A stretch of DNA of 64,000 nucleotides from Victivallis vadensis (GTDB taxonomy: Bacteria; Verrucomicrobiota; Kiritimatiellia; UBA8416; CAMCYG01), in assembly GCA_945883775.1 (NCBI GenBank), contig CAMCYG010000002.1:3512-67511 (forward strand). The letters run 5' to 3'. Of this stretch, positions 1 to 63,000 are shown in pieces. Within the stretch, counting starts at the first letter, position 1; each line of letters begins with the position of its first letter. A model generated the notes under the pieces. It was given only the letters and a program-made list of their open reading frames with translations, was not told the DNA's origin and searched no databases. The translations under genes and the position numbers were made by a program.

Positions 1-752
1 GTGTAATTGCCAGTGGATAGCTCGGTAATACCGTCTGCAACCCAGTAGCTGGGAATCAGCGGATTGGAGGCAATGTTGAGGCCAGGTATAAGCCTGGAAA
101 GACTCAATTGCATGTCATCGCCCATCTGATGTGTCATGTGCGAAGCGAGAAAAGACGATGCAATGATTGCGCTGATGCTTAGAATAATTATTATCCTGAC
201 GAGTCTTATAGAAGGAAAAAATCTGACGGTTATAATAGTAAACAGCGCTCCTATTCCACAGCAGATGATTATAAAAGGGACAGAGAAAACGAATGTCCAG
301 ATGACCATAACAAGTGAAAGCTTCTCGTGGAAAGCATATGCTCCGATGAAGGGGATGATTACAAAATAGAACGCCCACGAAGAAAGCGCGGCTGCCTCAA
401 GAAATTTATAGATGACCAGGTTTCGAATCGACATTGGCCTTGAGAGAAGATCCGTGACCTCGCGTGATCTATACAGTGTTGTGTATGTAGAGACAATGCT
501 GGATACCGCAAGCATAATCCCCATGCCCAGGAAAAAAAGGGAAAAGAGCTTAGTAATGATCAAAAGCCCCACGCCGCCTAAGCGGTCCAGAAAGCTGAAT
601 GCGTCCAGAAATACCATGAACATTCCCGCTGTGAAAGCTGACGCAAAGGCACTAATGAACACTATCTTGAAGCGGGACTGTGTGCTCAAAATACGGAAAA
701 TGTTGCGGGTATTGTGCAGGTACTTCTTCAGAAGCGCCTTAATTATCGTCAT
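1..752 (-). CDS. ABC-2 family transporter permease. The gene is partial and its C-terminal part runs off the window start.
   Basis: Reverse-strand translation from an ATG at 752..750 gives MTIIKALLKKYLHNTRNIFRILS... with several hydrophobic helices and no stop before position 1. The start ATG overlaps the TGA of the upstream ATPase gene (ATGA coupling). The plus-strand ORFs 136-369 and 412-774 are antisense shadows of this gene. Confidence 0.75.
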   Translation of the reverse strand, partial: MTIIKALLKKYLHNTRNIFRILSTQSRFKIVFISAFASAFTAGMFMVFLDAFSFLDRLGGVGLLIITKLFSLFFLGMGIMLAVSSIVSTYTTLYRSREVTDLLSRPMSIRNLVIYKFLEAAALSSWAFYFVIIPFIGAYAFHEKLSLVMVIWTFVFSVPFIIICCGIGALFTIITVRFFPSIRLVRIIIILSISAIIASSFLASHMTHQMGDDMQLSLSRLIPGLNIASNPLIPSYWVADGITELSTGNY

Positions 753-1495
753 CAGCCTCTCCCTTCTATCGTAACATCATCGGCTGTGAGTTTCAGAAAG
801 GCATCTTCAAGGTCTTTTGCATTGTCCGCCATGCCTTTTAGTTGACTGACGTTTCCTAAAGCAATCACCTTGCCATTCAGTATGATGGCAATGCGATCAG
901 CTATATCCTGCGCCAATGCCAGTATATGTGTCGTGAGGAATATAGTTGTTCCAGATCTTGCTTTTTCGCGGAGAAGGTCTTTTATGAGTCGTATGGTGTA
1001 AGGATCTAGTCCTATGAGCGGCTCATCTATGAACAATATCTTTGGTTCATGAAGTAACGTTGCCGCATATATAAGCCGTTGCTTCATTCCGTGCGAAAGA
1101 TCCTTTATGAGATGGTGCCGGATGTCCATCAGGTTGAAAGTCCTGAAAAGTTCTTCATATCTCTGCCAAATAAGATCGTGAGGGATGGCATACAGATCGC
1201 CTATGAACTCAAAGTATTCTGATGTTGTAAGTCGGTCATAAAGGAATGGCATGTCCGGAATGTAGCCCGTGATTTTTTTTGCAGCTATCGGGTCCTTGCT
1301 GATGTCAATGCCGTGCAGTTTGATAGTGCCTGAAGTGGGGCGAAGGAGTGAAGTCATCATCTTTATTGTGGTAGTTTTCCCTGCCCCATTAGGTCCAAGA
1401 AAGCAGAAAAGCTCACCAGTTGGTACCGTAAGGCTTATATTGTCGACTGCCTTGTTCTTTCCGAAATGCTTGGATATGCCTGTTAACTCGATCAT
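752..1495 (-). CDS. ABC transporter ATP-binding protein (ABC-2 exporter type)
   Basis: Walker A motif GPNGAGKTT, an LSHGMKQRL signature, and a Walker B/D-loop FIDEPLIGLDP. It overlaps both neighbouring genes by 4 nt. Confidence 0.9.
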   Translation of the reverse strand: MIELTGISKHFGKNKAVDNISLTVPTGELFCFLGPNGAGKTTTIKMMTSLLRPTSGTIKLHGIDISKDPIAAKKITGYIPDMPFLYDRLTTSEYFEFIGDLYAIPHDLIWQRYEELFRTFNLMDIRHHLIKDLSHGMKQRLIYAATLLHEPKILFIDEPLIGLDPYTIRLIKDLLREKARSGTTIFLTTHILALAQDIADRIAIILNGKVIALGNVSQLKGMADNAKDLEDAFLKLTADDVTIEGRG

Positions 1496-2385
1496 TGTTC
1501 TATTCCTTTCAGAAAGGTTTCGATAAGCGCCTGAATGGACGTTTCATTAATGGTTGTAGACAGACCTTCCCTTTGTGTAGATTGTGCCTGCTTCTGGTTG
1601 CGAATTCTCGTCCAAGCCATGGCTTTTTCCATGGTAGAACGCTCCATTAACAGACCGAAGGGGCTGGTCTGGCGCACAATATCGCCGGACTGGTCAAGCC
1701 ACGAATGGAAAAGAAGGCCAGACGCCTTTGTCGCAATCAATGTGGCATTATAGGAAATACCGTCGTATTCAATATTTTCCTTTCGCAAGGCAGTCATGAC
1801 GATTTTACTTTTTTTCATTGTGAATGGATCGAGCGAGTTCAGCGTAATGCTCTGGCCTGGCTTCAGATTTCTTGTGAGTGTTCCGCCTGATGGGGTGAAC
1901 AAAACAGAGTCAGAAGGGATCGATATCTTGAATTTACGCACTATTCCTGTGGTAATCATAGACACATCAAAGTAACCAGCGTTAGATCTAGCGCCCTTAA
2001 GCGTCACAGGCATGTCTTCGACCCTGACTGTAAAGGTAAATTCATATAGATTGTAATGAGCATCCAGCAGAAACGTCGAATCAGTTGAAACGGTTATGCC
2101 GGCTGGATTTACCTCCAGCCACAGGTACATCTGATTTTCATTTGCGTAATATCGGCAGTTGTCCTTGTCGCTGATATTCCAGACATTGCGGGTGTATCCC
2201 ACCTGAACATCGTTCATTTTTATGGCCATCCATGATTCGCGGAGAAGGAGATTCCTTGGGATCAACGACTTATAACCATCCGCAGTCCCTGAGAAATATT
2301 CGGGATAGGCTTCGTGCCTGATAAGCCATCCTACAAGACAGAGCCATGTTGCAATTAATGCTATCCTGAGGATTACAGCTTTCAC
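1492..2385 (-). CDS. hypothetical membrane-anchored protein encoded just upstream of the ABC ATPase
   Basis: 297-aa ORF with an N-terminal hydrophobic helix (ILRIALIATWLCLVGWLI). I recognise no conserved catalytic motif. Overlaps the ATPase start by 4 nt; the upstream gene ends at 2388, 3 nt away. Confidence 0.6.
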   Translation of the reverse strand: MKAVILRIALIATWLCLVGWLIRHEAYPEYFSGTADGYKSLIPRNLLLRESWMAIKMNDVQVGYTRNVWNISDKDNCRYYANENQMYLWLEVNPAGITVSTDSTFLLDAHYNLYEFTFTVRVEDMPVTLKGARSNAGYFDVSMITTGIVRKFKISIPSDSVLFTPSGGTLTRNLKPGQSITLNSLDPFTMKKSKIVMTALRKENIEYDGISYNATLIATKASGLLFHSWLDQSGDIVRQTSPFGLLMERSTMEKAMAWTRIRNQKQAQSTQREGLSTTINETSIQALIETFLKGIEQ

Positions 2386-2387
2386 GA

Positions 2388-3629
2388 TTAATTTCTAACA
2401 TATGCGGCCAGTGCCGTTTCAATTTCGCCAAGCTCTTTATTGAGTTCTATCAATTCAGGTGACTTCTGATCTTTTGTCGAACTCATCATATTCGCTTCAT
2501 CTGTTTTGTATTGCTTACTAGCAATCTCCAGTGCCCGGACAAGTGCACTTTCTTGTCCTTTTAATGCCTGAAGTTTTTCCGTAAAAGACATTCTCGCTGC
2601 GCCGACAGCCTGGTCTCTCTTTGTCTGAAGCTCCTCGGATTTCTTCATATAGTCAGCAACATCTTTTTCAGCTTTAAGAAACGCATCTTTACTTGGTATA
2701 TTTATGGCAGGCTTAGGTTTCTTGGCATCCTTTGCCGTCTGCATGGAAATCTTGTGTAGTATGCGCGATCTTCGCGAAACAAGGCTCTTAAGATTAAAGT
2801 CACTAGCCGCTAATGATCCTGAGTGAATCTCAAGGTCATTCGTCTCAAAATCAGCGAGATACTTTTGTCCGCCAGGCATTATCACATTACACTCAGTAAG
2901 CGCATTTTCTCCGGAATTGAAAGATTTATTTACTTCAACGAAGGATCCGAGAGGTATTATAATTTGTCCCTCTGTTTTGGGCTTAATAATTGCGAGGCCG
3001 GGCGTTTTTACGATGCCCCAACGACTTACTGCTTTTTCTGCAGTATAGGACGGAGAAACAAGAGCAAGGTCTTCCTGTTCTTCGCGACGACTCTCTTCCT
3101 CTTTAAGAGATAGTCTGGCAAGCATGGGATGGTTCTTATCTTTTTTCGCGAGATCCTCCTTAAACCTGGATAAAAGCGCAACATTCTTCTTGCTGACAAG
3201 GCTGGCGGCAATAAATTCGTACCCAGCGTTATTGAAATCAGGACCATAGCCGTCGTTTATATGCAAACTGTTCACTTTTGCTTCGATGAAAGACGATATG
3301 AAATTACTTTTCCTGTACATTACTGGCAGGCCTGTTGCAATTTTATCCGCAAGATTTTTTGCACTATCGTAGTCATTCATTGATAATGCAGTCTGGATCA
3401 GAAGGCCGTACATCTTTTTGAGTGCGTAGGGGTAATGAGCGGCCCAGGTTTGGTATGTTTCAATAGTTCTTATACCATTGGTAAGGTCACCCTTTGAGAA
3501 ATATATCTCAGCTTCCTTGATCTTACTGATAGTGATATTATATCTTATGAGCGGGCTCAGAAGGAGCGTCAACATTATGCCACTCAACAGGATGCAGACA
3601 CTTACAATCACAGATTTCAAATAATTCAT
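2388..3629 (-). CDS. hypothetical membrane-anchored protein with a C-terminal coiled-coil
   Basis: 413-aa ORF with an N-terminal TM helix (VIVSVCILLSGIMLTLLL) and a charged heptad-like C-terminus (KSEELQTKRDQ...ELNKELGEIETALAAY). It sits between the small membrane protein gene and the 297-aa gene with gaps of 2 nt and 3 nt. Confidence 0.6.
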   Translation of the reverse strand: MNYLKSVIVSVCILLSGIMLTLLLSPLIRYNITISKIKEAEIYFSKGDLTNGIRTIETYQTWAAHYPYALKKMYGLLIQTALSMNDYDSAKNLADKIATGLPVMYRKSNFISSFIEAKVNSLHINDGYGPDFNNAGYEFIAASLVSKKNVALLSRFKEDLAKKDKNHPMLARLSLKEEESRREEQEDLALVSPSYTAEKAVSRWGIVKTPGLAIIKPKTEGQIIIPLGSFVEVNKSFNSGENALTECNVIMPGGQKYLADFETNDLEIHSGSLAASDFNLKSLVSRRSRILHKISMQTAKDAKKPKPAINIPSKDAFLKAEKDVADYMKKSEELQTKRDQAVGAARMSFTEKLQALKGQESALVRALEIASKQYKTDEANMMSSTKDQKSPELIELNKELGEIETALAAYVRN

Positions 3630-3630
3630 A

Positions 3631-3900
3631 TCATTTATCCGGCTTAAACATTGCGATAACCGCAGTCACACCTACTAAAATGCCGAAGCTCATATAGCCT
3701 GCTACATATGAATCGCCGTGCTGCAACATCACAGACCACCCCAATTTATAACAAAACAGATAAGCGACTATAAGCCCCGTTTTTGAAAATTTGAATACAA
3801 GACATAATGTTAGTGTCGCAATCACAATGGTCAGATCCATGGCAGGGATTGTAATCGACGCATTGGACACAATGTCAATGAATTGCTGATATTTACTCAT
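3631..3900 (-). CDS. small integral membrane protein of 89 aa
   Basis: Likely start is MSKYQQFIDIV, with the ATG at 3900..3898 overlapping the TAA of the upstream gene (ATGAGTAA). The protein has two hydrophobic helices. The first 27 codons of the tracked ORF 3631-3981 overlap the upstream CDS and are probably not translated. Confidence 0.55.
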   Translation of the reverse strand: MSKYQQFIDIVSNASITIPAMDLTIVIATLTLCLVFKFSKTGLIVAYLFCYKLGWSVMLQHGDSYVAGYMSFGILVGVTAVIAMFKPDK

Positions 3901-5368
3901 TTGCTGCTCCTTTGTGACCCTTCCTGTATTGTATGAATGGGACTCCGAACTGGGTGGCGATCTTCTTGTCAGCCAATCCAATGCCAGACTTGTCGAGAAC
4001 TATGTCGACGCCGATGCCATCCAAAGAAACGGTGCTGATTGCACCGTCCTTGTCCTTAATTGCAAAAAGATCATCAATGGATCGAATCGGTTGCCCATTT
4101 ACTGCCGTAACTATCTGGTTGTTAATGTTTTGGTAACCTATGTTTATGTCATCGGGTAGAACTGTGAGTATGAATACGACTTTCTGTCCGGGTTGAGGTG
4201 GATTATCATAGGCGGTGTTGAGCAAATAATTGAGTTTGTAGATATTAGAGCTCTCGGCCCTGGAACCCATAGCCTTCAGAAATCTTCCGCTTAATTCCCT
4301 GAATATCAAACCGCCTGTCACGAGATATTCAGAATCTTCGGGGCCATCCTCTTCCGGTATGTAATATTTATTATCATCGAAACGGGAGAGGGGAACTACA
4401 ACCACAACCTCCTTCTTGTCCCTCAGCACTTTAAAGACAGCAGTATCCCCATTTTTCTTGTATCCGTTGATTATGTAGGGAAAGAACAGTCGTCCAAGCA
4501 AAGGATCGTTGTAAAATCCTAAATTGTCGATGTCATAACCGTCTATTGAAAGGATGATGTCATGCAGTAGCAGTTTGCCGTTAGCAGGAGAGAAGGGCGC
4601 AGTCCCAAGCACCATAACGCCTTTGTCGTCAGGCACTCCAAGATATTTCCTAATAGACGGATCAAGAAGAAGCTTGCCCTTCAGTCCAGACGTAGGAATT
4701 CCTTCGTATGGGGCGGTTGCATAATCATCCATAAAACGCTTGAGGCTGGGGAACCCAATGATATCTATTGATTTCTGGCCGGACCCCGAAACAATACCCA
4801 GCAATCTATCACCGATGAAAACTGGACTTCCGATTCCATTAATGCTCAAGTCTGTCTGCACCTTATAGTTAATGACAAATACAGGAATCTGACTTTGCTG
4901 GTTTGCGGACACGAGGATTATGTCGCCATCGCCTGTCTGAAGCTTGGCTGTCTCATCAAACTGCATTATCGACACCTTGTCCTTCAATCCTGCCTTGTCT
5001 GCGAATTCGACCGGCAGTAAATTGGAGATTTTTGAATTGTCCTGAGCTGTTAACAGAGCAAGATTGCAGTCTTTATCAGAAAGCTCGACTTTGGCCGGTA
5101 TTTTTACTGCGGATTGAGCCTTCCTGACCTCTATCATTTTTGCGTTATGGACCAGTGATTCGACGGTCAGTATCCTGCCGCCCTGCAATAGTATTCCGTA
5201 TCCTCTGCGACTGGAGACAGGACCTCTTTGCCATGGAATTATTGGATTAGGGTCCTGAAACGTCACCAAAACTTCTACAATCCCTGTTGATTTGTCTTCA
5301 GGGGATGCGGCTATTACCAACGCCATGCTGACAAAGAAAAGAAGGATAACGGCGGACAGATATCTCAT
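3893..5368 (-). CDS. HtrA/DegP-like S1C serine-protease paralogue that appears catalytically inactive (pseudo-protease); signal peptide present
   Basis: Signal peptide MRYLSAVILLFFVSMALVIAAS. It aligns with the adjacent active protease, but all three catalytic positions are replaced: ILTNAHVV becomes ILTVESLV (His to Ser), HDCDISII becomes KDCNLALL (Asp to Asn), and GNSGGPIF becomes GIGSPVF (Ser to Ile in my alignment). The C-terminal region is similar in length to the partner. Its start overlaps the upstream gene by ATGA. Confidence 0.7.
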   Translation of the reverse strand: MRYLSAVILLFFVSMALVIAASPEDKSTGIVEVLVTFQDPNPIIPWQRGPVSSRRGYGILLQGGRILTVESLVHNAKMIEVRKAQSAVKIPAKVELSDKDCNLALLTAQDNSKISNLLPVEFADKAGLKDKVSIMQFDETAKLQTGDGDIILVSANQQSQIPVFVINYKVQTDLSINGIGSPVFIGDRLLGIVSGSGQKSIDIIGFPSLKRFMDDYATAPYEGIPTSGLKGKLLLDPSIRKYLGVPDDKGVMVLGTAPFSPANGKLLLHDIILSIDGYDIDNLGFYNDPLLGRLFFPYIINGYKKNGDTAVFKVLRDKKEVVVVVPLSRFDDNKYYIPEEDGPEDSEYLVTGGLIFRELSGRFLKAMGSRAESSNIYKLNYLLNTAYDNPPQPGQKVVFILTVLPDDINIGYQNINNQIVTAVNGQPIRSIDDLFAIKDKDGAISTVSLDGIGVDIVLDKSGIGLADKKIATQFGVPFIQYRKGHKGAANE

Positions 5369-6873
5369 TTCTTTTCCTCCAGATTCTCTGTCTTGGTAAT
5401 CGCGTAATTCGCAAAGATATCCTTGTCAGCCTTGTTCATTGCGTCCGCATCCATGATTAGGCATTCTTCGTTATTCATAAACTTTATTTTGTGGTAACCA
5501 CTGATAGGATGAGAGAATGCCTCTTTAGCCTGCTGCAAGTTGCCAATTCTCTTGCCATTGATCTCCTCGACAACGCCGTTGACATATTCTTCGTGATATG
5601 AGTTGACCTCATGCGGGAGCCGTTTAATCATGAGCACGAATTCGTCACGTCCGGCATACAGGCTGTCACGTGCTGTAAAAATGGAAATATAAGAAAGAAT
5701 GACTTTCTTTCTGTCTCCCTGGACGCCTGTACCAAGGCTTTCCAGAATCTCCCTGTTGAGCGGTGCGAAGACCAGTCCGCCTTTTATGAAGAAACGAGGC
5801 TTCTGGTCGTACAAGTTCCTGAAAACAAAAGGATTTGATAATTTCTTAAGCGGCACTTTGAACATTTGCCGTTTCCCGTCTCTGACTACATCCAGGGTGA
5901 CGGATTGTCCTACTTGCTTTCGCTCGAAAAGTTCGGAGAACTGGACAGAATAGCCTTCAAGGTTGATGGTGCCGTCATCGTATATCTTGTAACCGTCAAT
6001 GGACAGCACTACATCTTTATCTTTTATCGCGCCGAAGGCGCTTCCGAATGGATTAACATAGCTTACGACTATACCTGTTTCGCCCTCCGGTATGCCTAGG
6101 CTTCTCTTAAGGGCCTTATTTCTGAGTTCGAGGTATTCGATTCCAAACTCGGGATATTCATTATACTCACCGTCCTCGATATCTCTCATGAAATGCTGTA
6201 TCACCGGTAGCGGTATGCCATATCCTATATTCTCGCCTCTGCTAAAGCCTTGAAAAGCAATCCCGACGACCTTACTGCCCATAAAAATGGGGCCACCGCT
6301 ATTGCCTGGATTTATGGCTGCATCGACCTGCATGACCAGATGCTCGTCAACCATGCTGTGAGAATAAACACTGTAGTCCATGCGTGAGACTACGCCCTTA
6401 GTCAAAGATATTCGATCGCCTCCCATGGGATAGCCGATGACTATCACCTCATCATTAAGCTCAGGCATTTTCTCTGCAAGTTCCAGTTCAGCGAGCCCAT
6501 CGTAAAACTCAGGAGCATCGACTTCAATGATTGAGATATCGCAGTCGTGTCCGACATACTTTCGCTTTGCGGGATAACGTTTAGGGTCTCCGTCGCGTTG
6601 CACTTCAATGAACTTGGCATTCGATACCACATGTGCGTTTGTAAGTATCCGCTTGCCTGATATCAGAAAACCTGTGCCATTGCCCTTTCCAAGATGACCG
6701 CTCTGCCATGGAAGCAAATAGTTCTCGCTCTGCACTGTCACATAAATCTTGATGACAGAGGAACGAATCTTGCCGTAGGAGGTGTCTCTTGTAAAAAACG
6801 CAGCCCCTCCCGTTGACAAAGAAAGCAAAACAAAAAGACACAGCATTAAGGTCAGCTTGGATTGCTTATTCAT
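5365..6873 (-). CDS. periplasmic trypsin-like serine protease of the S1C/HtrA-DegP family with a C-terminal PDZ-like region
   Basis: Signal peptide MNKQSKLTLMLCLFVLLSLSTGGAA. Catalytic triad motifs are present: TNAHVV (His), HDCDISII (Asp) and GNSGGPIF (Ser). About 250 aa of C-terminal region is consistent with PDZ domains. Confidence 0.85.
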   Translation of the reverse strand: MNKQSKLTLMLCLFVLLSLSTGGAAFFTRDTSYGKIRSSVIKIYVTVQSENYLLPWQSGHLGKGNGTGFLISGKRILTNAHVVSNAKFIEVQRDGDPKRYPAKRKYVGHDCDISIIEVDAPEFYDGLAELELAEKMPELNDEVIVIGYPMGGDRISLTKGVVSRMDYSVYSHSMVDEHLVMQVDAAINPGNSGGPIFMGSKVVGIAFQGFSRGENIGYGIPLPVIQHFMRDIEDGEYNEYPEFGIEYLELRNKALKRSLGIPEGETGIVVSYVNPFGSAFGAIKDKDVVLSIDGYKIYDDGTINLEGYSVQFSELFERKQVGQSVTLDVVRDGKRQMFKVPLKKLSNPFVFRNLYDQKPRFFIKGGLVFAPLNREILESLGTGVQGDRKKVILSYISIFTARDSLYAGRDEFVLMIKRLPHEVNSYHEEYVNGVVEEINGKRIGNLQQAKEAFSHPISGYHKIKFMNNEECLIMDADAMNKADKDIFANYAITKTENLEEKK

Positions 6874-6884
6874 CCGAATTATTC

Positions 6885-7406
6885 TTAGATCGGAATGCTC
6901 GCGAATATCCCGTATTCGAGATCGCCCGCTTCAAAGTCAGACAGGTCGCTAAAGGACTCGAATGGATAATATGTCATGAGCGTTGTTTCGATGCTGCCAA
7001 ATTTATGTCCGAAACCGACAAATAGCTGATAGTACATATCCGCCCAATCCGATTCGTCATCATTACTGATATAGGGTTTGAGCACACCCACGCCGCCCCT
7101 CCATATTTTATCCTTAAGTATTAGATTGGCTTGAGGAGTCAATGCATAATCCATGTTTTCCATACCTTCTTTCGAGAAGTCGAAAGCGTAATCGAGAGCA
7201 AACTGCAATGCATAAGCATCGCCGGTGTCATGGACTTCATAAGACAGTGCATATGACATGTCCCCATCACCAAAAGGCAAATCGGTGTATATTGAGCTTT
7301 CGGCATGATATCTTACTCCGACTCCCACCATGTCAATGGCTGAAGTTGCCGCGAATACCTGCATGGTTGATAGCGCAAACAAAGCTATAACTAATGTCTT
7401 TTTCAT
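6885..7406 (-). CDS. secreted protein with a signal peptide, possibly a small 8-strand outer-membrane beta-barrel
   Basis: Signal peptide MKKTLVIALFALSTMQVFAATSA. The mature protein has alternating hydrophobic/aromatic strand-like segments (VGVGVRYH, YALSYEV, YALQFALDYAF, MYYQLFVGFGH). A GGGAGG Shine-Dalgarno lies upstream of the ATG. It is the first gene of the operon. Confidence 0.55.
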   Translation of the reverse strand: MKKTLVIALFALSTMQVFAATSAIDMVGVGVRYHAESSIYTDLPFGDGDMSYALSYEVHDTGDAYALQFALDYAFDFSKEGMENMDYALTPQANLILKDKIWRGGVGVLKPYISNDDESDWADMYYQLFVGFGHKFGSIETTLMTYYPFESFSDLSDFEAGDLEYGIFASIPI

Positions 7407-7567
7407 AGACCTCCCAACTTGTTATGAGATTCAACTACTTAGGCCTATTATTAATAGTATATGCAGGTGTTGTAAAGATGAAACTGAAAACTCACATTAG
7501 ACTTGCCTTGAACGGATGAATCATGGATATTGTGCGCTTTGTTCCAACGATATAACAAGGAGTTACC

Positions 7568-7753
7568 ATGGGTAGAGATAGAGCAAGCGACATGAAGCCG
7601 ATTTCAAGACCTCGAAAATCCGGCACAGACAGAGCACGCAGAATCAAGGTCCATCGCAAAAGACTCACAGATGCAGGTTTAAATGCAGAGGTCGTGAGAA
7701 GGATGGATCATAAGCAGTTGAGAGCCAAGCTTGCAGAGCTGCGCAAAGCTTGA
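7568..7753 (+). CDS. small basic protein of 61 aa with unknown function
   Basis: A strong AAGGAG Shine-Dalgarno lies 7 nt upstream of the ATG. The protein is Arg/Lys-rich (RPRKSGTDRARRIKVHRKRL). It is transcribed divergently from the protease operon and sits immediately upstream of pabBC. Confidence 0.5.
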   Translation: MGRDRASDMKPISRPRKSGTDRARRIKVHRKRLTDAGLNAEVVRRMDHKQLRAKLAELRKA

Positions 7754-7777
7754 TCCAGTTTCCGGGTTCTCACCGAA

Positions 7778-9493
7778 ATGCCGTCAAACAGGATACTGAT
7801 AAAATCAAGTAACGGCGGTTGGCTGAGTTTTTCCGGGGCAACATCCGTACTCAGGGCGGATAGTCCAGCCCAAATTGGGGAAGTTCTTAAACAAATAGAC
7901 AAAGCCTGCAATGAAGGATTCTTCGTTGCAGGCTTTATTTCTTATGAGGCGGCGGTCGGAATAGATGACCACTATAGCAACCATACCCTCAAAACGCTAC
8001 CTTATGCCTGGGTGGGGATATATCGTCAATTTAGCGCTGTTGATGATATCTTTGCGGGGACCGCGCCGGCTGATAGACTAGATTGGCGACCCTCAATTAG
8101 CAGGTCTGATTACGACTCAGCTATATCAAGGATCAAATCCTATATAATGGCAGGCGACACCTACCAGGTGAATTATACTATAAAGTTTCTGGCTAAGTTC
8201 GCTGGCAACCCTTTCTCACTCTTCCGAAGCATGCATGACGCGCAGCCTTCCATATATTCCTCTTATATCGAAACCGATGATTTTGCCATTATTTCAGTCT
8301 CACCGGAGCTATTCTTTGAGAAAAAAGGAAATCACCTGCTAAGCAGGCCCATGAAAGGTACGGCCAAGCGAGGGCTCTATCTTGAGGCCGATAACAAGGC
8401 GATAGAGAATCTCCGTAATAGCGAGAAGAATCGAGCCGAAAACGTCATGATTGTAGATATGATAAGAAATGACCTTGGCCGGATTGCGGAGAAGGGGACT
8501 GTGCAGGTGACAAGCTCCTTTGATGTAGAACGACATCCCACTGTCCTGCAGATGACCTCAACCGTAGAGGCTGAATCCTGCGCTGGAGTTGGCGACATCA
8601 TGCGGGCGATGTTTCCGTGTTCATCCATCACAGGTGCGCCTAAAGTCAGGACGATGCAGATTATTAAAGAACTCGAGCTACAGCCAAGGGGTATCTATAC
8701 GGGCGCGATCGGCTATGTTGCGCCGGGCGGTGATGCGCGGTTCAGCGTGGCTATAAGGACTGTGAGCATTGATAAAGCCTCCGGCTCAGCTGAGTACGGA
8801 ACCGGTGGGGGCGTAGTGTGGGACTCCATTGACGAGAGCGAATATCAGGAGTGCGTGTCGAAAGCGCTGGTCCTTAACACTCCGGCTCAGGACTTTGCAC
8901 TTATAGAAACATTATTGTGGCGCAAAGACACTGGATATTTTCTACTCAAAGAGCATGCTGAACGCATGGCGAATTCATCAGTTTACTTCTCTTACCCGTT
9001 TGATGAAAAAATGTTTCACCATGTAACCTCACAGGAAATTGCAAGTTTTACCTGCGACATGCGTGTCCGCGTCATTCTAGACCGTAACGGCAGAATCACT
9101 AGCGAAAGCCGGCCGATGCCGCAGACAAGACCAATGAAGGTTGCTCTATCCGACACACCCGTACACAGCGAAAACGTTTTTCTATATCATAAAACCACTA
9201 ATCGCTCTGCCTATGCCGAGGCCCTAAAGGAAGGATATGATGATGTTCTGCTGTACAACGAACGAGGAGAACTCACGGAGTCAACTATAGCCAATATTGT
9301 CCTGGAGATTGACGGCAAGAAGCTGACTCCGTGCCGTGATTCAGGGCTCCTTAATGGTGTGTATAGACGACATCTGTTGGAAAAGAACGAGATTACCGAG
9401 GCAGTCATAAGGATTGAAGATCTCGAACGTGCCCAAAAGGTCTGGTTGATAAACTCAGTCAGAGGCTGGATTGAAGTACATATTGCAAAGTAA
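7778..9493 (+). CDS. pabBC: fusion of aminodeoxychorismate synthase component I (PabB-like chorismate-binding domain) with aminodeoxychorismate lyase (PabC, fold-type IV PLP enzyme)
   Basis: The N-terminal ~350 aa carry chorismate-utilising enzyme motifs (SPELFF, MKGTAKRG, IVDMIRNDLG, SSITGAPK, GIYTGAIGY). The C-terminal ~200 aa have class-IV aminotransferase/ADC lyase features (FALIETLLW..., LYNERGELTESTIANIVLEI..., GVYRRHLL). Confidence 0.8.
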   Translation: MPSNRILIKSSNGGWLSFSGATSVLRADSPAQIGEVLKQIDKACNEGFFVAGFISYEAAVGIDDHYSNHTLKTLPYAWVGIYRQFSAVDDIFAGTAPADRLDWRPSISRSDYDSAISRIKSYIMAGDTYQVNYTIKFLAKFAGNPFSLFRSMHDAQPSIYSSYIETDDFAIISVSPELFFEKKGNHLLSRPMKGTAKRGLYLEADNKAIENLRNSEKNRAENVMIVDMIRNDLGRIAEKGTVQVTSSFDVERHPTVLQMTSTVEAESCAGVGDIMRAMFPCSSITGAPKVRTMQIIKELELQPRGIYTGAIGYVAPGGDARFSVAIRTVSIDKASGSAEYGTGGGVVWDSIDESEYQECVSKALVLNTPAQDFALIETLLWRKDTGYFLLKEHAERMANSSVYFSYPFDEKMFHHVTSQEIASFTCDMRVRVILDRNGRITSESRPMPQTRPMKVALSDTPVHSENVFLYHKTTNRSAYAEALKEGYDDVLLYNERGELTESTIANIVLEIDGKKLTPCRDSGLLNGVYRRHLLEKNEITEAVIRIEDLERAQKVWLINSVRGWIEVHIAK

Positions 9494-9534
9494 TCTAACC
9501 TTGTTTATATTAATTTCATTAAAAGGGAGAAGTT

Positions 9535-10923
9535 ATGTTAAAATACAATAAAGGGTGGAATACATTCGATTTTGATTCTTACAGCATTCATCTGGATAAT
9601 CCCAGTGAACCCATGCTTTTTAAGGACGTTTTTCCATACGATGAGGTGCCGCGTATCGGATTCAATCATAGGCTCACACCAATGCACATGCCTGATGATA
9701 TATGGATTACTGACACCTCGTTTCGAGATGGCCAGCAGTCAATGCCGCCATATACAGTAAAACAGGTTGTTGACCTTTATAGTCTTCTTCACAGACTCGG
9801 CGGACCGAAAGGCATCATAAGACAATCCGAATTCTTCCTGTATACGAAAAAAGACCAACAGGCTATCGATAAAGTTAAATCTCTGGGTTATCATTTTCCT
9901 GAAGTGACAGGTTGGATAAGGGCACACAAGAAAGATCTTATGCTGGCCAAGGAATTGGGCATGAAAGAGACAGGCATCCTGACATCAGCCTCAGATTACC
10001 ACATCTACCTGAAGCTGAAAATGGATCGAAAGCAAGTGATTGAGGAGTACACCGCAATTGTCAAAGAAGCGCTCAATCTTGGTATTATTCCAAGATGCCA
10101 CTTTGAAGATGCCACACGGGCCGATTTCTACGGCTTTGTCGTTCCGTTTGCCCATGAACTGATGAAGATAGCGACTGATGCCAATTCTATGATCAAGATC
10201 AGGGTCTGCGATACACTTGGTTTGGGCGTGCCGTATCCTGGCGTTGCCATGCCGCGATCGGTACCAGGTCTTATTTACGGGCTTGCTTACTATGCAGGCG
10301 TACCAAGCGAGTGGATGGAATGGCACGGGCATAATGACCTGCATCTTGTGACTGCAAATGCTGTAACTGCGTGGCTTTACGGATGCAGTGCCGCGAATGG
10401 AACTATCCTCGGAATAGGAGAGCGGACTGGTAATCCATCAATAGAAGGTTTGATAATGGCTTATTTGCAACTCAGAGGGAATGATGCGCAGATAGATACA
10501 ACCGCCATAACCGAAATCGCCCAGTATTTCGAGAAAAACCTTCATTTCAATATACCATCCAACCTGCCGCTGGTAGGAAAAGATTTTAATATGACCAGGG
10601 CTGGGATTCATGCAGACGGCTTGCTCAAAAATGAGGAAATATACAACCTGTTTGACACAAAGAAAATTTTAAATAGGCCGATCGAGATTCAGATAACTGA
10701 CAAGAGCGGCGTGTCAGGCATTATACTTTGGATACATAACATGATAGGCCGTGGAGCGTCTTCGCTGTTGTCAAAGGACAACCCAGGCATCATAAAAATA
10801 AATAAGTGGATCAAGCGTCAGTATGATTTAGGACGTACTACGAGTATCAGCGATAAGGAGATGTTCAAGCTGGTCAAGCAGTATCTCAAAGATTGGATCA
10901 AGGAGAGCGGTTTTGCAATATAA
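9535..10923 (+). CDS. DRE-TIM metallolyase of the HMGL-like, 2-isopropylmalate/homocitrate/citramalate synthase family
   Basis: Motifs ITDTSFRDGQQS and HGHNDLHLVTANAVTA are typical of LeuA/NifV/CimA-type aldolases. An AAGGGAG Shine-Dalgarno is present. The specific substrate cannot be told from sequence alone. Confidence 0.7.
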   Translation: MLKYNKGWNTFDFDSYSIHLDNPSEPMLFKDVFPYDEVPRIGFNHRLTPMHMPDDIWITDTSFRDGQQSMPPYTVKQVVDLYSLLHRLGGPKGIIRQSEFFLYTKKDQQAIDKVKSLGYHFPEVTGWIRAHKKDLMLAKELGMKETGILTSASDYHIYLKLKMDRKQVIEEYTAIVKEALNLGIIPRCHFEDATRADFYGFVVPFAHELMKIATDANSMIKIRVCDTLGLGVPYPGVAMPRSVPGLIYGLAYYAGVPSEWMEWHGHNDLHLVTANAVTAWLYGCSAANGTILGIGERTGNPSIEGLIMAYLQLRGNDAQIDTTAITEIAQYFEKNLHFNIPSNLPLVGKDFNMTRAGIHADGLLKNEEIYNLFDTKKILNRPIEIQITDKSGVSGIILWIHNMIGRGASSLLSKDNPGIIKINKWIKRQYDLGRTTSISDKEMFKLVKQYLKDWIKESGFAI

Positions 10924-57043: not shown

Positions 57044-60000
57044 CTACTGATTGGCAATACCATATGTTATTCGATAATAGACTGTTGAAGGTGGTGCTGG
57101 CGCGATATTTACGTCATCCACTACCGCTGCATTACCACCATTCACTCCGTCACTTGTATATTGGTCAATTGGAACCCAAGTGATAAGATCCGAACTGGTC
57201 TCGACTGTGAAACGTATTGGCACCGCGCCAAGATTGGAATAAGTCATCCAGTTGACATTGATATTCCCGCTACCGTCAATTGTAAGCCCGGATATAGCAA
57301 TCTGGCTGACAGGCCCAGCAACATTCGGATTACTTCCCGCAGCAATCTCTGCAAGATCATTTGCACCACCAATTGAAATATCACCATCAGTGTCGACTGA
57401 ATTATATGATGTCCCAAAAGCATACTCCACATAATTCAGTATTCCATCGCCATCCGTGTCTGCAGAACCCGATGTCGCCAACGAACCAGCATAATTCTGA
57501 TATTCCCACCCATCAGGCACGTTGTCATTATCAGTATCACGATCGCTTATCACTATGTTTACACCGGTCACGCTCTCGGTGGTCAATAAATTCACCACCC
57601 TGAGCGAGTACTCAATGGCATACTCATACCTGATTCCCTCTGAAACATCACGAGCAACACCTAAAGGCTCCCATGGATCGGCAATGCTATTCCCGTTCAC
57701 ATCGATAAAAGCCTGCACATAATATATATCATGCTGAAGGCCATTGATAGTATAAGCACCAGCGGTGCTGAGTTTCTTCATGCCATCCACACCCGTGCGC
57801 AGATCAGGTTTGTTATAGGCCATAACATATATATTACCAGTTGCTTTTCCGAAATATGAAACTGTGCCAGACAAAGCTGGCGCGCCCACATACTGCTGAG
57901 GTGGATTAGTAATCGCCAGCGAGAAACTGCCATATCCCGACCAGCTGCCATAGGAAGCGTTATTATGCGGCCTTATACGCCACTGATAATTTCCATTGGT
58001 AAACGAACCGCCACTTCCAAACAATCCATATGTTGTAGTCGCGTCAACAGGCATAGACTGCTTGAATAAACCTGTCTGGAATCTGTAGGGCGCCGCAAAC
58101 ATTTTTGTGTAATTGACTCCGTTGGCTGAAGTGATCTCTATCTCATATCTCGGCTCGTTTGTGGCGCTGGACCATTCAAATATGTGTTTCTGGGATGTAA
58201 TCATATCGCCATTGATCGGACGGACAAGTACCGGGGTCCCAGAAGAAGACATCGGGACAAAGAAGCGATCCTTCTGCAGCATAGTTCCGTTCTCATAATC
58301 AAATATCTGCCACTCGTAACTGCCCTGAGGAAGACCATAATAATAGTTATTGCCGTCCAAATATGTGGCAGTCTGATAGTCCGGCTTAAAGAAGTAGTTC
58401 CTATCCCTTAGCGTCTTCTGCAATATCACAGGACTGTTGTCAATATCCAATCTGGTCAAACGCACAAACACGTTTGTAGGCGTGGCTGAAGCATTGACCC
58501 AAGTAAATGCTTTGAACCATGGTATAGCGGACTCTTCTGTCAGATAATAATTCAAGTTGGCAGTATCCCCATATACACAGTCCAAATCAGCCACGAAATA
58601 CGGGTCTCCCGGTTCATACGTATCTGCTGTCGAATCCCAGTTGGCATCGGAGGTGTTTTCTTCCACACCTTCTTTCAGATACGAAAGGAAATAAGTCTTA
58701 TTGTTCTCATCCGGCCAGGCCGAAGCTGTTATATGCCATGCCCTTGCTCTGGCATCATTCGTACTAGTGCCTACATCACGCAGATTATCATCATATGTCG
58801 AGACGCTGAATGTGTTGACCCAGAGAGAACCATTGAGATTCCCTTCATAATAGGCGCTCCCATTAATCATATTCTCAGGATAGTCAGCGACTGTTGGATT
58901 CCCTCCGTTCAAATATTCCCGCAGATTATCTGACCCGTCGTTATCAGGGTCCTCATTAGCATCATATCTCAATCTGCTCAAGATAGGTGCAAACTGAGCT
59001 TCCCACCAGTCAGGCATACCGTCCCCATCGTCGAACTTTGCGCCATAGGGCACGCCGGAATTACCGTAACTGTCAAAATAGTCATTCTTGCCGTCTCCGT
59101 CAGTATCAGCGCGCATCGGATCCAGATATATCCCCCCGAACGAGTCGACAAATGCCATATACTCATACAGATTGACCAAGCCGTCCTTATCAGGATCGCC
59201 CCAGGCACCGTTGCTGCCGGTTGCATCATTCGCATCGAGTCCGGCCGCAATTTCCCAATCATCCGGCAGGCCATCACCGTCAGTATCAAACGGTTCAGTT
59301 CCCTTCCCTAGATTATCCCACAACTCAATATCTTCATCCGCTACAGCCTGCCGCAACGGAAGCAAATCATCCATCACCGCTGCGGTATACCGCGAATATA
59401 TCAAATCGATCAGATCATAAGCAAAGGGATGGTCTTCGTACCCGGATTGAATAGAAGTTCTATAGGTTAATCCGTACGGATTACTGGCATTCGGGAACTC
59501 GTTTGTTATGTTAATATTAGCAGTGACTCTATTTGTCGTTGTCACCCCATTGGTTCCGGTAGTGGTGGTTGTCGTCGTTATTGTCCCGATAGGAACAACC
59601 CACGGCCAATTTATGGACAGCGAGTCAAGCACAGGATTTGTCAGCGGCATATGCGATGCGGTGTTATCTATCCATGGAACATAGTTATAATCATTATAAA
59701 CAGTCGACCGGTCCGGAGCCGTTCTCCAGAACTCATTACCGGCATAACTGCCGTCATTCGGCCTACCGCTGACAAGATTGAAGCCATCCGGTGAGACCGA
59801 CGAGTGGTCCGGATCAGGCAGATCATCGAAAGAATAATGGTACAACAGCATCGGAGCATAATTATCCAGAATATCACCCTGCGCATTGAGCGTAACGATA
59901 TCCGTACGTTTCATGCGCCTCATCATATTATCCTGAATGATCTGTGCACTGACAATGCCATCCCAGATACGTACCTCATCTATCCATCCTTTAAAGAACG

Positions 60001-63000
60001 AACTTAAACCCGGATTCCCAAGTGCTGGCCCGGCATTAGGGCCTGTCCAAACGTTAGCGCCGTTTATCATGCCCATCGGGCTCGAATCAGCTGCGCCCAC
60101 CACAATCGGTCCGCGCATCACATATCCAAAATTTGCCTGATTCGTAGTGATCATCTGCCCACCACCGACCCAACCATTGCAGGGGATTTCGGCTGATGGC
60201 GTCGACTGCTGAAGCTCACCATTGATGTAAAGCTCCAGTCTCTTTGTCAAACCATTATAGGAAGCAGCCAGATGCACCCACGCATTGGGAGCCAATACCC
60301 CACCTACAGCCCGTGCATTGACATTCAGCGTGTCAAAACCGGCTCCTGTGTATTCTGTGAACGGCACACCTGTCGCGTCTATACCAAGCCTGAAATTGTA
60401 ACGCAGACTTGTAGGCCAGCCCATCGGATTCCCGTTTTCGACCAGCAAAGGACGTTCCACTATTATCTGATCCGCACCTGAAACAGGATTTTCAGGCCTG
60501 ACCCATGCCTCAACCATCCAGTTTCTCAACACATCCTGCTCCGAAGGGAAATACGCCGCGACGGTCCTGGCCGCAGCATTGCCGTTAAGATATAGCGCCC
60601 TTCTCTTTAGCGGGAGCTCCGCGTCAAGCGGATCTGTATAGCCCGGGCTTGCCGAATCAGTTATTTCCGCCCGGTCTGCAATATTGTCATTATCAGTATC
60701 ATACCCCTCATTGACCTCAAAATCGAACATATAACTTGGCGCAAACCCATACGCCAAGTCCACATCATCCCAGTACCACGGTAAAGTCCCAGTCGAGTAA
60801 TACAGATTCACAAAGCTCTGCTGGTAACTGGTATCGGTCACCCATATCGGCGTCGGATCGGTATGGTATCTCTGCGGATTTATCGAACCCGGCTGTAATG
60901 ACTCGTCTATATTGGGCAAGCCATCCTGATCTGAATCACTGAACTGATGCCCTATAACGGCCGGTGCCAGTCTGACGTCGAACGTAGGCCAATCGCTAAA
61001 GGAGAATGGCACATTAAGGCCCCAACCCACGATCCAAACCCCTTTATAGATATCATACCCGCCAAGTATAGGATTCAGGCAATGGAACACCTCATAATAG
61101 TCGTCCATGTTGTCCATATCTGAGTCGTCATTGACCGGTGCCGAGCCAGCGAATTCCTCTAAAGGATAGTGAAAATCAGGAAGATCAGCGAGAAGAGCAG
61201 GTGTTGTCATGGCAAAAACATAAGGAATCGTACCCAATGACGCCTGCCAGAGATCCGCATCACCATAATAATGCCAATCCCACTCATAGGGGGTACCAGT
61301 CGCGGAATTGATAGGATCATATCCGAAAAGCCCCAATCCCGCCGCCCATGAGCCATACTGCCATGACGGCACAAAACATGTCAGATATTCCTGATAATTC
61401 TGAAGTCCATCCTGATCGTAATCATATCGCAAGGGAGCTTTTTGAAAATAGTTACTATTTGTGTAGTTCCCATTTGCAAACAAATTTGTACCCGAGTCAT
61501 CAAAAGTCCCATCCATACCGTTACGACCGGAAGCGCTGTTGAGATTTGTCGTCGCTGTATTCTGGTAGACAAACTCCCAATTATCAGGTATGTGGTCGCC
61601 GTCTGTGTCAACGCTAGTGGGATTCAACCCACCGCCCTCATAACAATGCATCGCGCGCGCGCCGCCGGGATAAATCTGTGAAAATTCTGCGCCATCCATG
61701 ACCTGGTCCCCATCAGTGTCGAGATTATATGGATCTGTCGGAAAGTGTTTATTCAACCAGGTTTCATATTCGGTTGGAATGCTGTTTGTAACAGGAACCC
61801 AAGCAGTGCCATCAAAGATCGAATTTGTTGACTCACTCATGTAAGCATTAAAGAACTCACCAGCGTTATCAAGCCCGTCCCCGTCCACGTCAGAGCCACC
61901 AGGCCCTACATATAACTCCCAGCCGTCAAACGCTCCATCGCCGTCAGTATCCGGATTACGAGGATGAGTGAGGTTAAGAAATTCGTCTAAAGTCGTATAG
62001 TCTCTCGTGTTCTCATTGTGTGTCGGCGTAAGACTCCACATATACTCCCAAGGCTCATAAGTTGCATTTGCAACTGCGGTCCTGGGATCAAAACCATACG
62101 CGACATACACAGCATTATGCTCATTACCAATACCGTCATCAGCCATAAAGTCTCTATCGGGATTCGACGCAGCGTCTGCGGTTGGCGGGGTTGTTACTAG
62201 TAGCCACGGATCGAAACCGAAGCTGATCTCCCACTCATCGGGCAAACCGTCAGCATCTATATCTACGTAATTCGGATTAGATGTCGCACCTCGCTGGGCA
62301 CGTACGCTTACACTATACTCATCCAAATTAACATAAGGCAGAGGTGGGGTTCCAGCCTGAGCAGTAATATCATCATAGTAAAAGTCGCCATCAGGATTAC
62401 CATTCGGTCCATTGTCTATATCTACATCGCCATCATCCAATGGCGAAGGATGAGCACCCGCAGCCAAACCTGCCATTTGCGATGCGATCTCAAAGCTATG
62501 CTCCCAACCATCCGGCATTCCATCAATATCAGTGTCAGCAAGCAACGGATCTGTTGTCCCAAATGTCCCGGCTGCATAAGGCGGGATATTAGTTCCAACA
62601 AGTATTCTCTGATATTCCTCAAGATTAGTGAAGGGAGTGACCGTTTTTCCGCTGAATGTAACATTCTCAGCCAAGGCCAGATAGTCGAAATCGCCGTCCG
62701 GATTGCCCGTCGCGCCCATATCGCCCTTGTTGTCGAGCGGGTCAAGAGTGTAGGTGATCTCCCATTCATCAGGCATCCCGTCCCCATCGGTATCAGGATC
62801 ATTGGGATCAGTTGAAAGCAACATGATTACCAGGAACTGTCCCAAAGGAATATTTTCTACGCCGGCATTTTCGACAAACTGCTGATATTCCCTTAAATTA
62901 GTGAAGTTGCCGACAGTAAAACCTGTTAATTTATCAAACAACAGATCGCCGTCCGGGTTTCCAGAAGCGCCATCAACTCCCGCCGCGCTAGTTGGATTCA

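Follow-up and report, generated by a model that had tools for sequence, protein, structure and literature searches.

We describe a conserved operon that joins an active and a dead HtrA-type protease to an ABC unit with a tethered periplasmic beta-spiral. It occupies positions 1 to 7406 (minus strand) of a 64,000-nucleotide stretch from Victivallis vadensis (GenBank assembly GCA_945883775.1, contig CAMCYG010000002.1, positions 3,512 to 67,511), which we call the window. We number the genes in the order in which they are read: a predicted small outer-membrane barrel (g1), the active protease (g2) and its dead paralogue (g3), two membrane proteins (g4 and g5), the beta-spiral protein (g6), the ATPase (g7) and the permease (g8). 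A hybrid histidine kinase gene (g9) follows past the edge of the window. For an understudied phylum the operon is a lead that is both solid and conserved. Its features of interest are a split DEG7-like protease pair, an ABC partner of EipB-like fold and a peptidase that is either built in or swapped. We propose that it may encode a module that uses ATP to extract or export a hydrophobic polypeptide, which is then cleaved; we find this reading quite possible, though somewhat short of probable.

A conserved gene order made of separable parts

We compared the operon with two sets of loci. The permease-anchored set holds 80 loci from species-level genomes, out of 569 permease matches. All are metagenome-assembled genomes (MAGs), labelled Kiritimatiellia, Victivallales, Lentisphaerae, Verrucomicrobiota or Planctomycetes-Verrucomicrobia-Chlamydiae (PVC), with a few labelled otherwise. 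The second set is anchored on the dead protease g3 and adds 80 further loci from metagenomes. Presence and absence are counted in loci with at least 6.5 kb of sequence upstream (permease-anchored) or downstream (protease-anchored).

The order g2-g3-(g4)-g5-g6-g7-g8 is found in 28 fetched loci, 22 of them distinct at 95% permease identity. Among these 22 the median pairwise identity of the permease is 51%. For g3, identity is about 35%, and for g5 about 20%. Hence, the arrangement is not a chance run of open reading frames (ORFs).

The constant core of these loci is g6-g7-g8. In 64 of the 80 permease-anchored loci g7-g8 is directly preceded by a g6 homologue, and the rest are mostly truncated contigs. 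The g6/g7 junction has a median overlap of 4 nucleotides. On the protease side, g2 is almost always found immediately upstream of g3, again with a median overlap of 4 nucleotides (79 junctions). The two sides meet between g5 and g6: in 30 of the 30 loci that have both genes the junction is tight, with a median overlap of 4 nucleotides and a maximum gap of 85. This junction, the joined order and the pattern of catalytic residues in g2 and g3 are all retained across deep divergence, and these are among the observations that support our proposal.

The protease pair and the ABC trio also occur apart, which makes the operon a composite of a g2-g3 cassette that is widespread on its own, an independent ABC unit (g6-g7-g8) and the accretions g1, g4, g5 and g9. 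Both g4 and g5 are detected solely beside the protease pair, in the sampled loci mostly with the ABC module too. On a tree of g3 the linked loci form one large clade that also contains the few loci with only g1-g5. This pattern suggests that the modules were joined once, long ago, with occasional loss afterwards.

The stand-alone parts keep varied company. Across clades we found no partner that is common to the stand-alone protease pairs. The most distant of these pairs (28% identity to g3; L156, L157, L160 and also L159) have a conserved 903-amino-acid gene upstream. Downstream, L157 and L160 have a gene of 1386 amino acids on the opposite strand, which in L156 is cut off by the end of the contig. 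In these loci the protease pair may have a different set of partners. A conserved fourth partner of the ABC trio in protease-less loci was considered and rejected, because the upstream neighbours vary (HAD-like genes, divergent PAS sensors and unrelated genes). In five ABC-only loci (L031, L047, L052, L058 and L080) the immediate upstream neighbour of g6 is a divergent gene, on the opposite strand, for a PAS-domain sensor. The ABC module, too, thus tends to have PAS sensors beside it, which differ from the kinase downstream of the window operon.

Some close permease homologues were found on contigs binned as Desulfobacteraceae/Desulfobacterales or Omnitrophota (L036, L047, L052, L073 and L077). 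Such binning could reflect mis-binning or horizontal transfer of g6-g7-g8.

Layout and transcription

The original prediction placed eight minus-strand genes in tight succession, and the ORF coordinates bear this out: gaps and overlaps are at most 11 nucleotides. Its outline of the gene content, with an active and an inactivated HtrA, an ABC pair and membrane proteins, stands as well. An 11-nucleotide gap separates g1 from g2, a gap of one nucleotide g4 from g5 and a gap of two g5 from g6. The g2/g3 and g6/g7 junctions are ATGA overlaps, g3 and g4 share eight nucleotides (ATGAGTAA), and g7 and g8 share one nucleotide within TGATG. Four ATGA-type junctions had been claimed, whereas the actual figure is three ATGA-type overlaps and one overlap of a single nucleotide. 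Shine-Dalgarno-like purine runs stand ahead of g1, g3, g4, g7 and g8. Translational coupling argues for co-expression of the genes, but the fixed stoichiometry that had been read from it does not follow.

The source contig (ENA ERZ27280308, 83.8 kb; locus L001) carries the operon on its plus strand, and a window coordinate equals 12386 minus the L001 coordinate. On this contig g9 begins 68 nucleotides after g8, with no terminator-like site between them. It encodes a cytoplasmic, membrane-less PAS/HATPase/receiver hybrid histidine kinase. From the sequence, the eight genes are probably co-transcribed, with g9 making nine. The kinase comes after 11 of 20 full loci, and after 1 of 29 that have the ABC trio only (Fisher p = 5e-5, uncorrected for phylogeny).

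A promoter-like site (TTTACA, 18 nucleotides, AATAAT; 10 of 12 matches) is located at 7447 to 7476 on the minus strand, about 40 nucleotides upstream of the g1 start. It is a consensus match only (L001 4910-4939), and the regional total of such sites does not exceed the shuffle expectation. No riboswitch or leader RNA was found by Rfam in window positions 1 to 10000 at E up to 1.

The active and the dead protease

The g2 gene (5365 to 6873, minus strand) encodes a 502-amino-acid periplasmic serine protease of the Deg2/Deg9 type. Pfam recognises Trypsin_2 (E 1.9e-24), PDZ_2 (E 1.3e-7) and PDZ_3 (E 2.3e-21), and NCBIfam matches too. Against the PDB, Deg2 and Deg9 align over the full length at E 7e-77 to 1e-73. 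The catalytic triad is present (H81, D112 and S192) and is conserved in all 17 orthologues checked. A trypsin-fold domain with its triad, followed by C-terminal PDZ domains that include a Deg2-type PDZ_3, makes g2 a member of the Deg2/Deg9 branch of the HtrA/DegP (S1C) proteases as far as its sequence can tell.

The g3 gene (3893 to 5368, minus strand) encodes a full-length paralogue of 491 amino acids with a signal peptide and 27% identity to g2 over the full length. The original prediction held that all three catalytic residues are replaced in this paralogue, which we confirm: in g2 numbering, H81 is a serine, D112 an asparagine and S192 an isoleucine. Because the triad is replaced, g3 is a fold homologue and not an active member of the HtrA family. 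It keeps PDZ_3, and its PDZ_2 match falls slightly under the curated cut-off; its best solved relative is Deg9 (E 2e-37). Like g2, it begins with a signal-like hydrophobic segment.

In 17 of 17 permease-anchored orthologues g3 has neither the histidine nor the serine, with varied replacements, and g2 keeps His-Asp-Ser in the same loci. The dead paralogue likewise has neither residue in the distant pairs L146, L155 and L156. In a further distant pair (L158, 8430-11422) the second gene keeps the histidine and the aspartate and has lost only the serine, which is an asparagine. This gene looks like an intermediate stage in the degeneration of the dead paralogue, judged from its residues.

Both proteins have the Trypsin_2, PDZ_2 and PDZ_3 architecture of plant Deg2/Deg9. 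A second comparison is with DEG7/Nma111, where an active protease moiety is likewise paired with a degenerate one. In DEG7 both are fused in a single eukaryotic polypeptide, whereas g2 and g3 are two translationally coupled bacterial genes. Since they are separate genes with an ATGA overlap and separate signal peptides, their likeness to DEG7/Nma111 is functional only. DEG7 trimerises via its degenerate protease domain (PMC3194040). By analogy, g2 and g3 probably form a mixed cage, in which g3 would probably supply surfaces for oligomerisation or substrate binding.

The g6 beta-spiral and the transglutaminase-like domain of its relatives

The g6 gene (1492 to 2385, minus strand) starts with GTG and encodes 297 amino acids: an N-terminal membrane helix with its N-terminus inside, followed by a periplasmic domain. 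This domain has the beta-spiral fold of EipB and PA1994. Its closest solved bacterial match is Brucella EipB, which is LolA-like. The ciliary protein CATIP is also among the fold matches, and YmcC, LmcA, VioE and LolA/LolB score lower. The basic N-terminal tail and the acidic segment after the helix, seen in nearly all homologues, place the beta-spiral in the periplasm. It thus shares a compartment with g2 and g3, which carry signal peptides.

In sequence, g6 stands apart from the families that it resembles in fold. Brucella EipB (DUF1849) and Pseudomonas PA1994 (DUF1089) are LolA/LolB-like periplasmic beta-spirals, and g6 has no detectable membership of either sequence family. Up to E 1, DUF1849 matches neither g6 nor any of 38 homologues. 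PDB sequences searched with a profile gave no match, and the YmcC-fold beta-barrel families DUF3108 and DUF6134 give only sub-threshold profile matches in a minority of the homologues. A word-index search returns 1 homologue of g6, and an exhaustive profile search 413 representative sequences.

The g6 family has two length classes, about 280 to 300 and about 500 amino acids, and in both the first 260 residues make up the g6-like region. The long forms have a Transglut_core domain in addition (E 1e-18 to 1e-23). Its motifs GDCNEHTYL, FYYHAWP and EMDPT, with a cysteine, a histidine and an aspartate, are conserved in each of the 37 long forms from the fetched loci. A peptidase-type active site is thus normally built into the ABC partner. 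The window's g6 is a short form without the transglutaminase-like domain that most relatives have, and neither a second copy nor a separate gene with such a domain was found elsewhere in the 64-kb window. Short forms are found in 13 of 17 protease-linked loci and in 7 of 29 unlinked ones (Fisher p = 8e-4, uncorrected for phylogeny).

EipB is a periplasmic 14-stranded beta-spiral that has been likened to LolA/LolB and is needed for envelope integrity (bioRxiv 10.1101/551135). It is synthetically lethal with a periplasmic TPR protein, and indirect evidence hints at a link to lipoproteins (bioRxiv 10.1101/551135). EipB is soluble and stands alone, whereas g6 is membrane-anchored, encoded with an ABC transporter and in most relatives fused to a transglutaminase-like domain.

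The ATPase and the permease

The g7 gene (752 to 1495, minus strand) encodes a 247-amino-acid ABC ATPase of the DrrA/ABCA (ABC-2) type. The ABC_tran match has an E of 6e-28, and the drrA subfamily matches at E 1.7e-69, under the equivalog cut-off. Walker A (GPNGAGKTT), the ABC signature (LSHGMKQR), Walker B (ILFIDEP) and the H-loop (TTH) can all be read in the translation. The closest solved ATPase domains belong to ABCA3, ABCA1, ABCA7 and ABCA4 (E 1e-64 to 1e-57). NosF, the ATPase of a non-transporting ABC-2 complex, is also among the solved relatives. GldA is matched at E 9e-57, under the family cut-off.

The permease g8 is cut by the edge of the window (1 to 752, minus strand), which holds the N-terminal 250 of its 555 codons. 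The complete gene lies at L001 11634-13301. The 250 residues inside the window match PF16949 (ABC_tran_2) at E 9.5e-39 and 134 bits, against a gathering cut-off of 25.7, and the full 555-amino-acid protein is annotated PF16949. Hydropathy predicts about 11 to 12 membrane helices with short loops only and no large periplasmic domain. The homologues found number 541, mostly from MAGs of Kiritimatiellae and Lentisphaerae. A sequence search found no solved relative of g8.

In Pfam, PF16949 is described as a putative component of ABC systems, and source annotations give the name ABC-2 permease. We found no study of the family in the literature, and the sole paper that mentions PF16949 is about something else. 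Among ABC-2/type V exporters (DrrAB, the ABCA lipid exporters, LanFEG, Wzm-Wzt and NosFY) the DrrA/ABCA-type ATPase is shared with g7. In contrast to these systems, g8 is a single chain of 555 amino acids and about 12 helices, and an accessory protein of the g6 kind is not described for them.

Membrane and outer-membrane proteins

The head gene g1 (6885 to 7406, minus strand) encodes 173 amino acids with a Sec signal peptide, eight antiparallel strands of membrane length and a C-terminal aromatic beta-signal, as in small barrels of the OmpA-TM/OprF-N/OmpX type. We predict with high confidence that g1 is an integral 8-stranded outer-membrane barrel. The original prediction was of a small secreted beta-barrel-like protein; on our analysis this is an outer-membrane barrel and not a soluble secreted protein. 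It is also the least tightly linked gene: the median gap to g2 is 176 nucleotides, and g1 is present in 16 of the 22 full loci with room upstream. Because of its place in the outer membrane and its loose linkage, g1 is more likely a component than the exported substrate that it had been suggested to be.

The two remaining genes lie between the proteases and the ABC trio. The smaller, g4 (3631 to 3900, minus strand), encodes 89 amino acids from its ATG with 2 transmembrane helices predicted by hydropathy, and a profile search finds it between g3 and g5 in 24 loci. The other, g5 (2388 to 3629, minus strand), encodes 413 amino acids with one N-terminal membrane helix. An alignment of 17 orthologues divides it into a TPR-like region, a variable beta-rich middle that is missing in some orthologues, and a conserved helical C-terminus with an NPHAxxY motif. 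TPR_14 or TPR_19 matches are found in 8 of the 17, and a coiled coil is probable from the sequence. Among protease-anchored loci with enough flank, 13 of 32 have g5.

Pfam and NCBIfam give no curated-family match for g1, g4, g5 or g6. The earlier statement that the proteins of 413 and 297 amino acids have no recognisable domains therefore holds for curated families, but not for folds and repeats, since g6 is a beta-spiral and g5 orthologues have TPR matches.

A proposed mechanism of extraction and cleavage

How could these parts work together? In the mechanism that we propose, ATP hydrolysis by g7 would drive g8 to pull a hydrophobic polypeptide out of the inner membrane. Candidate substrates are lipoproteins, peptides embedded in the membrane and envelope proteins that have been mislocalised. 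The beta-spiral of g6 would take the polypeptide over from g8, and a peptidase would then cut it. In most lineages this peptidase would be the Cys-His-Asp domain fused to g6. In the lineage of the window it would be the g2/g3 Deg complex, kept near by g4 and g5 and perhaps bridged to the outer membrane via g1. The downstream PAS hybrid kinase would probably regulate the module or report on it. Extraction and cleavage is the simplest model that unifies these parts, because the built-in Cys-His-Asp domain tends to be missing where the Deg pair is attached.

Several observations weigh against this mechanism. Of the 46 permease-anchored loci with enough flank, 17 carry g2-g3-(g4)-g5 and 29 are without proteases. 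From the other side, 10 of 32 protease-anchored loci carry g6 and g8, and 22 are without the ABC module. The operon is thus not the one indivisible system that was first suggested. Three loci have g1-g5 without the ABC module, one of them with the kinase directly after. Furthermore, the linkage probably arose once, so that the 22 distinct loci are not independent events.

The relation between the two peptidases is also imperfect. Four loci have both the Deg pair and the transglutaminase-like domain (five with L066, whose upstream flank is limited), and in seven both are absent. The permease tree shows several losses of the domain. A clean swap of one peptidase for the other as a rule is therefore rejected, and what is left is an enrichment only.

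The architecture of the proteins adds further difficulties. As the extracytoplasmic loops of g8 are short, any hand-over would need to go by way of the g6 helix. Neither the positive-inside rule nor charge bias gives a clear topology for g5, so this protein may face the cytoplasm. Lastly, as generalists, HtrA proteases may do without a dedicated partner.

A more specific version of the proposal is an undescribed trans-envelope machine of PVC bacteria. In it, the PF16949 exporter would pass lipidated or membrane-embedded proteins to the tethered EipB/LolA-like beta-spiral, and a dedicated peptidase would release or destroy them. For most lineages that peptidase would be the transglutaminase-like domain fused to g6; for the present one it would be a heteromeric active/dead Deg cage with a TPR scaffold and an outer-membrane barrel tie. 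We consider this version unlikely.

Alternative explanations

The operon may instead hold two independent modules on one transcript: g1-g5 as a periplasmic quality-control protease or chaperone, and g6-g7-g8 as an exporter of a small hydrophobic molecule or lipid. Shared regulation by envelope stress would then account for their adjacency. This is a serious alternative, though we judge it somewhat unlikely. It draws on the same facts that trouble our proposal, namely that the protease and ABC parts are separate in most loci sampled from either side, that the linkage seems to have arisen once and that generalist proteases are at hand, and also on the varied neighbours of the stand-alone pair and of the stand-alone trio. 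But independent modules would have to explain why the g5-g6 junction stays so short in every locus with both genes across deep divergence. They would also have to explain why g6 tends to have lost its transglutaminase-like domain where the Deg pair is linked, and why g4 and g5 occur only beside the protease pair and, in the sampled loci, mostly with the ABC module.

The remaining alternatives keep the parts together and give them another task. In a mechanotransmission complex nothing would be transported; the ATPase would toggle a periplasmic hydrolase through the g6 helix, as in FtsEX-PcsB/RipC/EnvC or NosDFY. For most lineages the hydrolase would be the fused transglutaminase-like domain, and for the window the Deg pair. 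FtsEX controls CHAP and NlpC/P60 hydrolases, which parallels the papain-fold Cys-His-Asp domain fused to the ABC partner in most relatives; NosF is a solved relative of g7, and g5 has a helical, coiled-coil-like region comparable to FtsEX partners. We nevertheless hold this to be improbable: g8 is not of the FtsX/MacB type and has no large periplasmic domain, the ATPase domains closest to g7 come from genuine ABCA-type lipid exporters, and the g6 fold is a beta-spiral like that of ligand carriers and not a coiled-coil lever. A role in resistance to membrane-active peptides, comparable to LanFEG/LanI or Nsr, would have the pump expel foreign hydrophobic or cationic peptides out of the membrane, the periplasmic proteases destroy them and the kinase sense them. 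A protease, an ABC pump and a sensor kinase do resemble known peptide-resistance loci, the lantibiotic-protection ABC ATPase subfamily is among the matches of g7 (E 2.9e-50), and the kinase comes after full loci more often than after ABC-only ones. However, that g7 match is generic for ABC-2 ATPases (higher scores go to drrA, GldA and RbbA), the kinase lacks a membrane or periplasmic sensor domain, defence and immunity families match generic domains only, and no bacteriocin or immunity genes lie nearby in what is a housekeeping region of the chromosome; such a role is very unlikely. Barely credible is the idea that g1 is the cargo, exported by the ABC system and processed by the proteases. As the first gene, with a signal peptide and few other contexts in which it is seen, g1 has some features of a substrate. 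Yet outer-membrane barrels travel by Sec and BAM, g1 is predicted to be just such a barrel with its beta-signal, 6 of 22 full loci with upstream room do without it, and it lies at a distance from g2.

Relation to known systems

Each component comes from a known superfamily: HtrA, ABC-2-type ATPases, small outer-membrane barrels, TPR and the EipB-like fold. We compared their combination with established envelope systems. GldAFG also is an ABC-2 system with large extracytoplasmic accessory proteins, and g7 resembles GldA, but the accessory families differ. GldG (ABC_transp_aux) and DUF4340 match none of g4, g5 and g6 (E up to 0.1 to 1), none of 38 g6 homologues and none of 17 g5 orthologues, and GldF was not found among the operon proteins. 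Thus, neither the match to a known accessory family nor the already annotated gene order that would have counted against the original prediction was found, and the order is not described in the literature searched.

In LolCDE-LolA and LptB2FGC an ABC engine of the inner membrane works with a periplasmic acceptor, rich in beta-strands, that takes up hydrophobic cargo. Both are working analogues of g6-g7-g8, and LptC is tethered by one N-terminal helix, as is g6. As families they were tried and rejected: none of the eight proteins matches the Lol, Lpt, Mla, MacAB or HlyD families (FtsX/MacB, LptF/G, MlaE/MlaD, HlyD).

Peptidase-containing ABC transporters (PCAT, with a C39 domain) and the Lap system (with the transglutaminase-like protease LapG) each link an ABC exporter functionally to a cysteine peptidase of papain fold. 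These parallel the transglutaminase-like domain fused to g6 in most relatives; the window's g6 has no peptidase domain. The PCAT peptidase is cytoplasmic and fused to the permease, and LapG is a soluble PF06035 protein of a type I secretion system. PCAT/C39 and LapG (PF06035) families give no match. Anti-phage defence was rejected as well, since PADLOC gives only generic trypsin-domain and ABC-ATPase-domain matches and none for the other six proteins.

The literature searched, which covered PF16949, DUF3108, DUF6134 and transglutaminases with ABC-2 in Kiritimatiella, holds no description of the operon. The original prediction knew of no established system with this composition. We agree, as none of Lol, Lpt, Mla and GldAFG fits and neither a curated family nor a paper on the system was found. 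The hosts, of the Kiritimatiellia/Lentisphaerae type, are abundant polysaccharide degraders, and we know of no experimental work on their envelope biology.

If the modules cooperate, they would be a new coupling of cytoplasmic ATP to periplasmic proteolysis, beside peptidase-containing ABC transporters and FtsEX-controlled hydrolases. The operon would then offer a handle on PF16949 permeases, with their hundreds of members, on the biochemical role of the EipB/PA1994 beta-spiral in envelope integrity and on obligate active/dead HtrA pairs in bacteria, which mirror DEG7/Nma111 as separate genes. Should the trans-envelope machine be real, it would be a new class of peptidase-coupled ABC exporter, and the EipB-like fold and the split DEG7-like pairs of bacteria would each gain a first function.

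Neighbouring genes

The remainder of the window is ordinary housekeeping chromosome, with genes for LepA, AspRS, ProRS, IlvD and a PabB-PabC fusion. Divergent from the operon, a very basic (Arg/Lys-rich) ORF of 61 amino acids lies at 7568-7753 on the plus strand; it is called as a gene on the source contig and has no Pfam match. It is followed at 7778-9493 (plus strand) by the 571-amino-acid fusion of a chorismate-binding (PabB-like) and a class IV aminotransferase (PabC-like) domain, by its domains probably a bifunctional aminodeoxychorismate synthase/lyase.

At the far end of the window, an ORF of 2264 amino acids (57044-63838, minus strand) has Laminin_G_3 and a bacterial TSP3 repeat as its only recognised domains. 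It probably encodes a giant surface or secreted protein, to judge from these domains. Past the left edge of the window, directly after the kinase, the source contig carries a NamZ-family gene and a fused NTP_transferase + APH gene (L001 14914-17979), which we take to resemble the exo-muramidase NamZ and the AmgK/MurU enzymes of peptidoglycan recycling.

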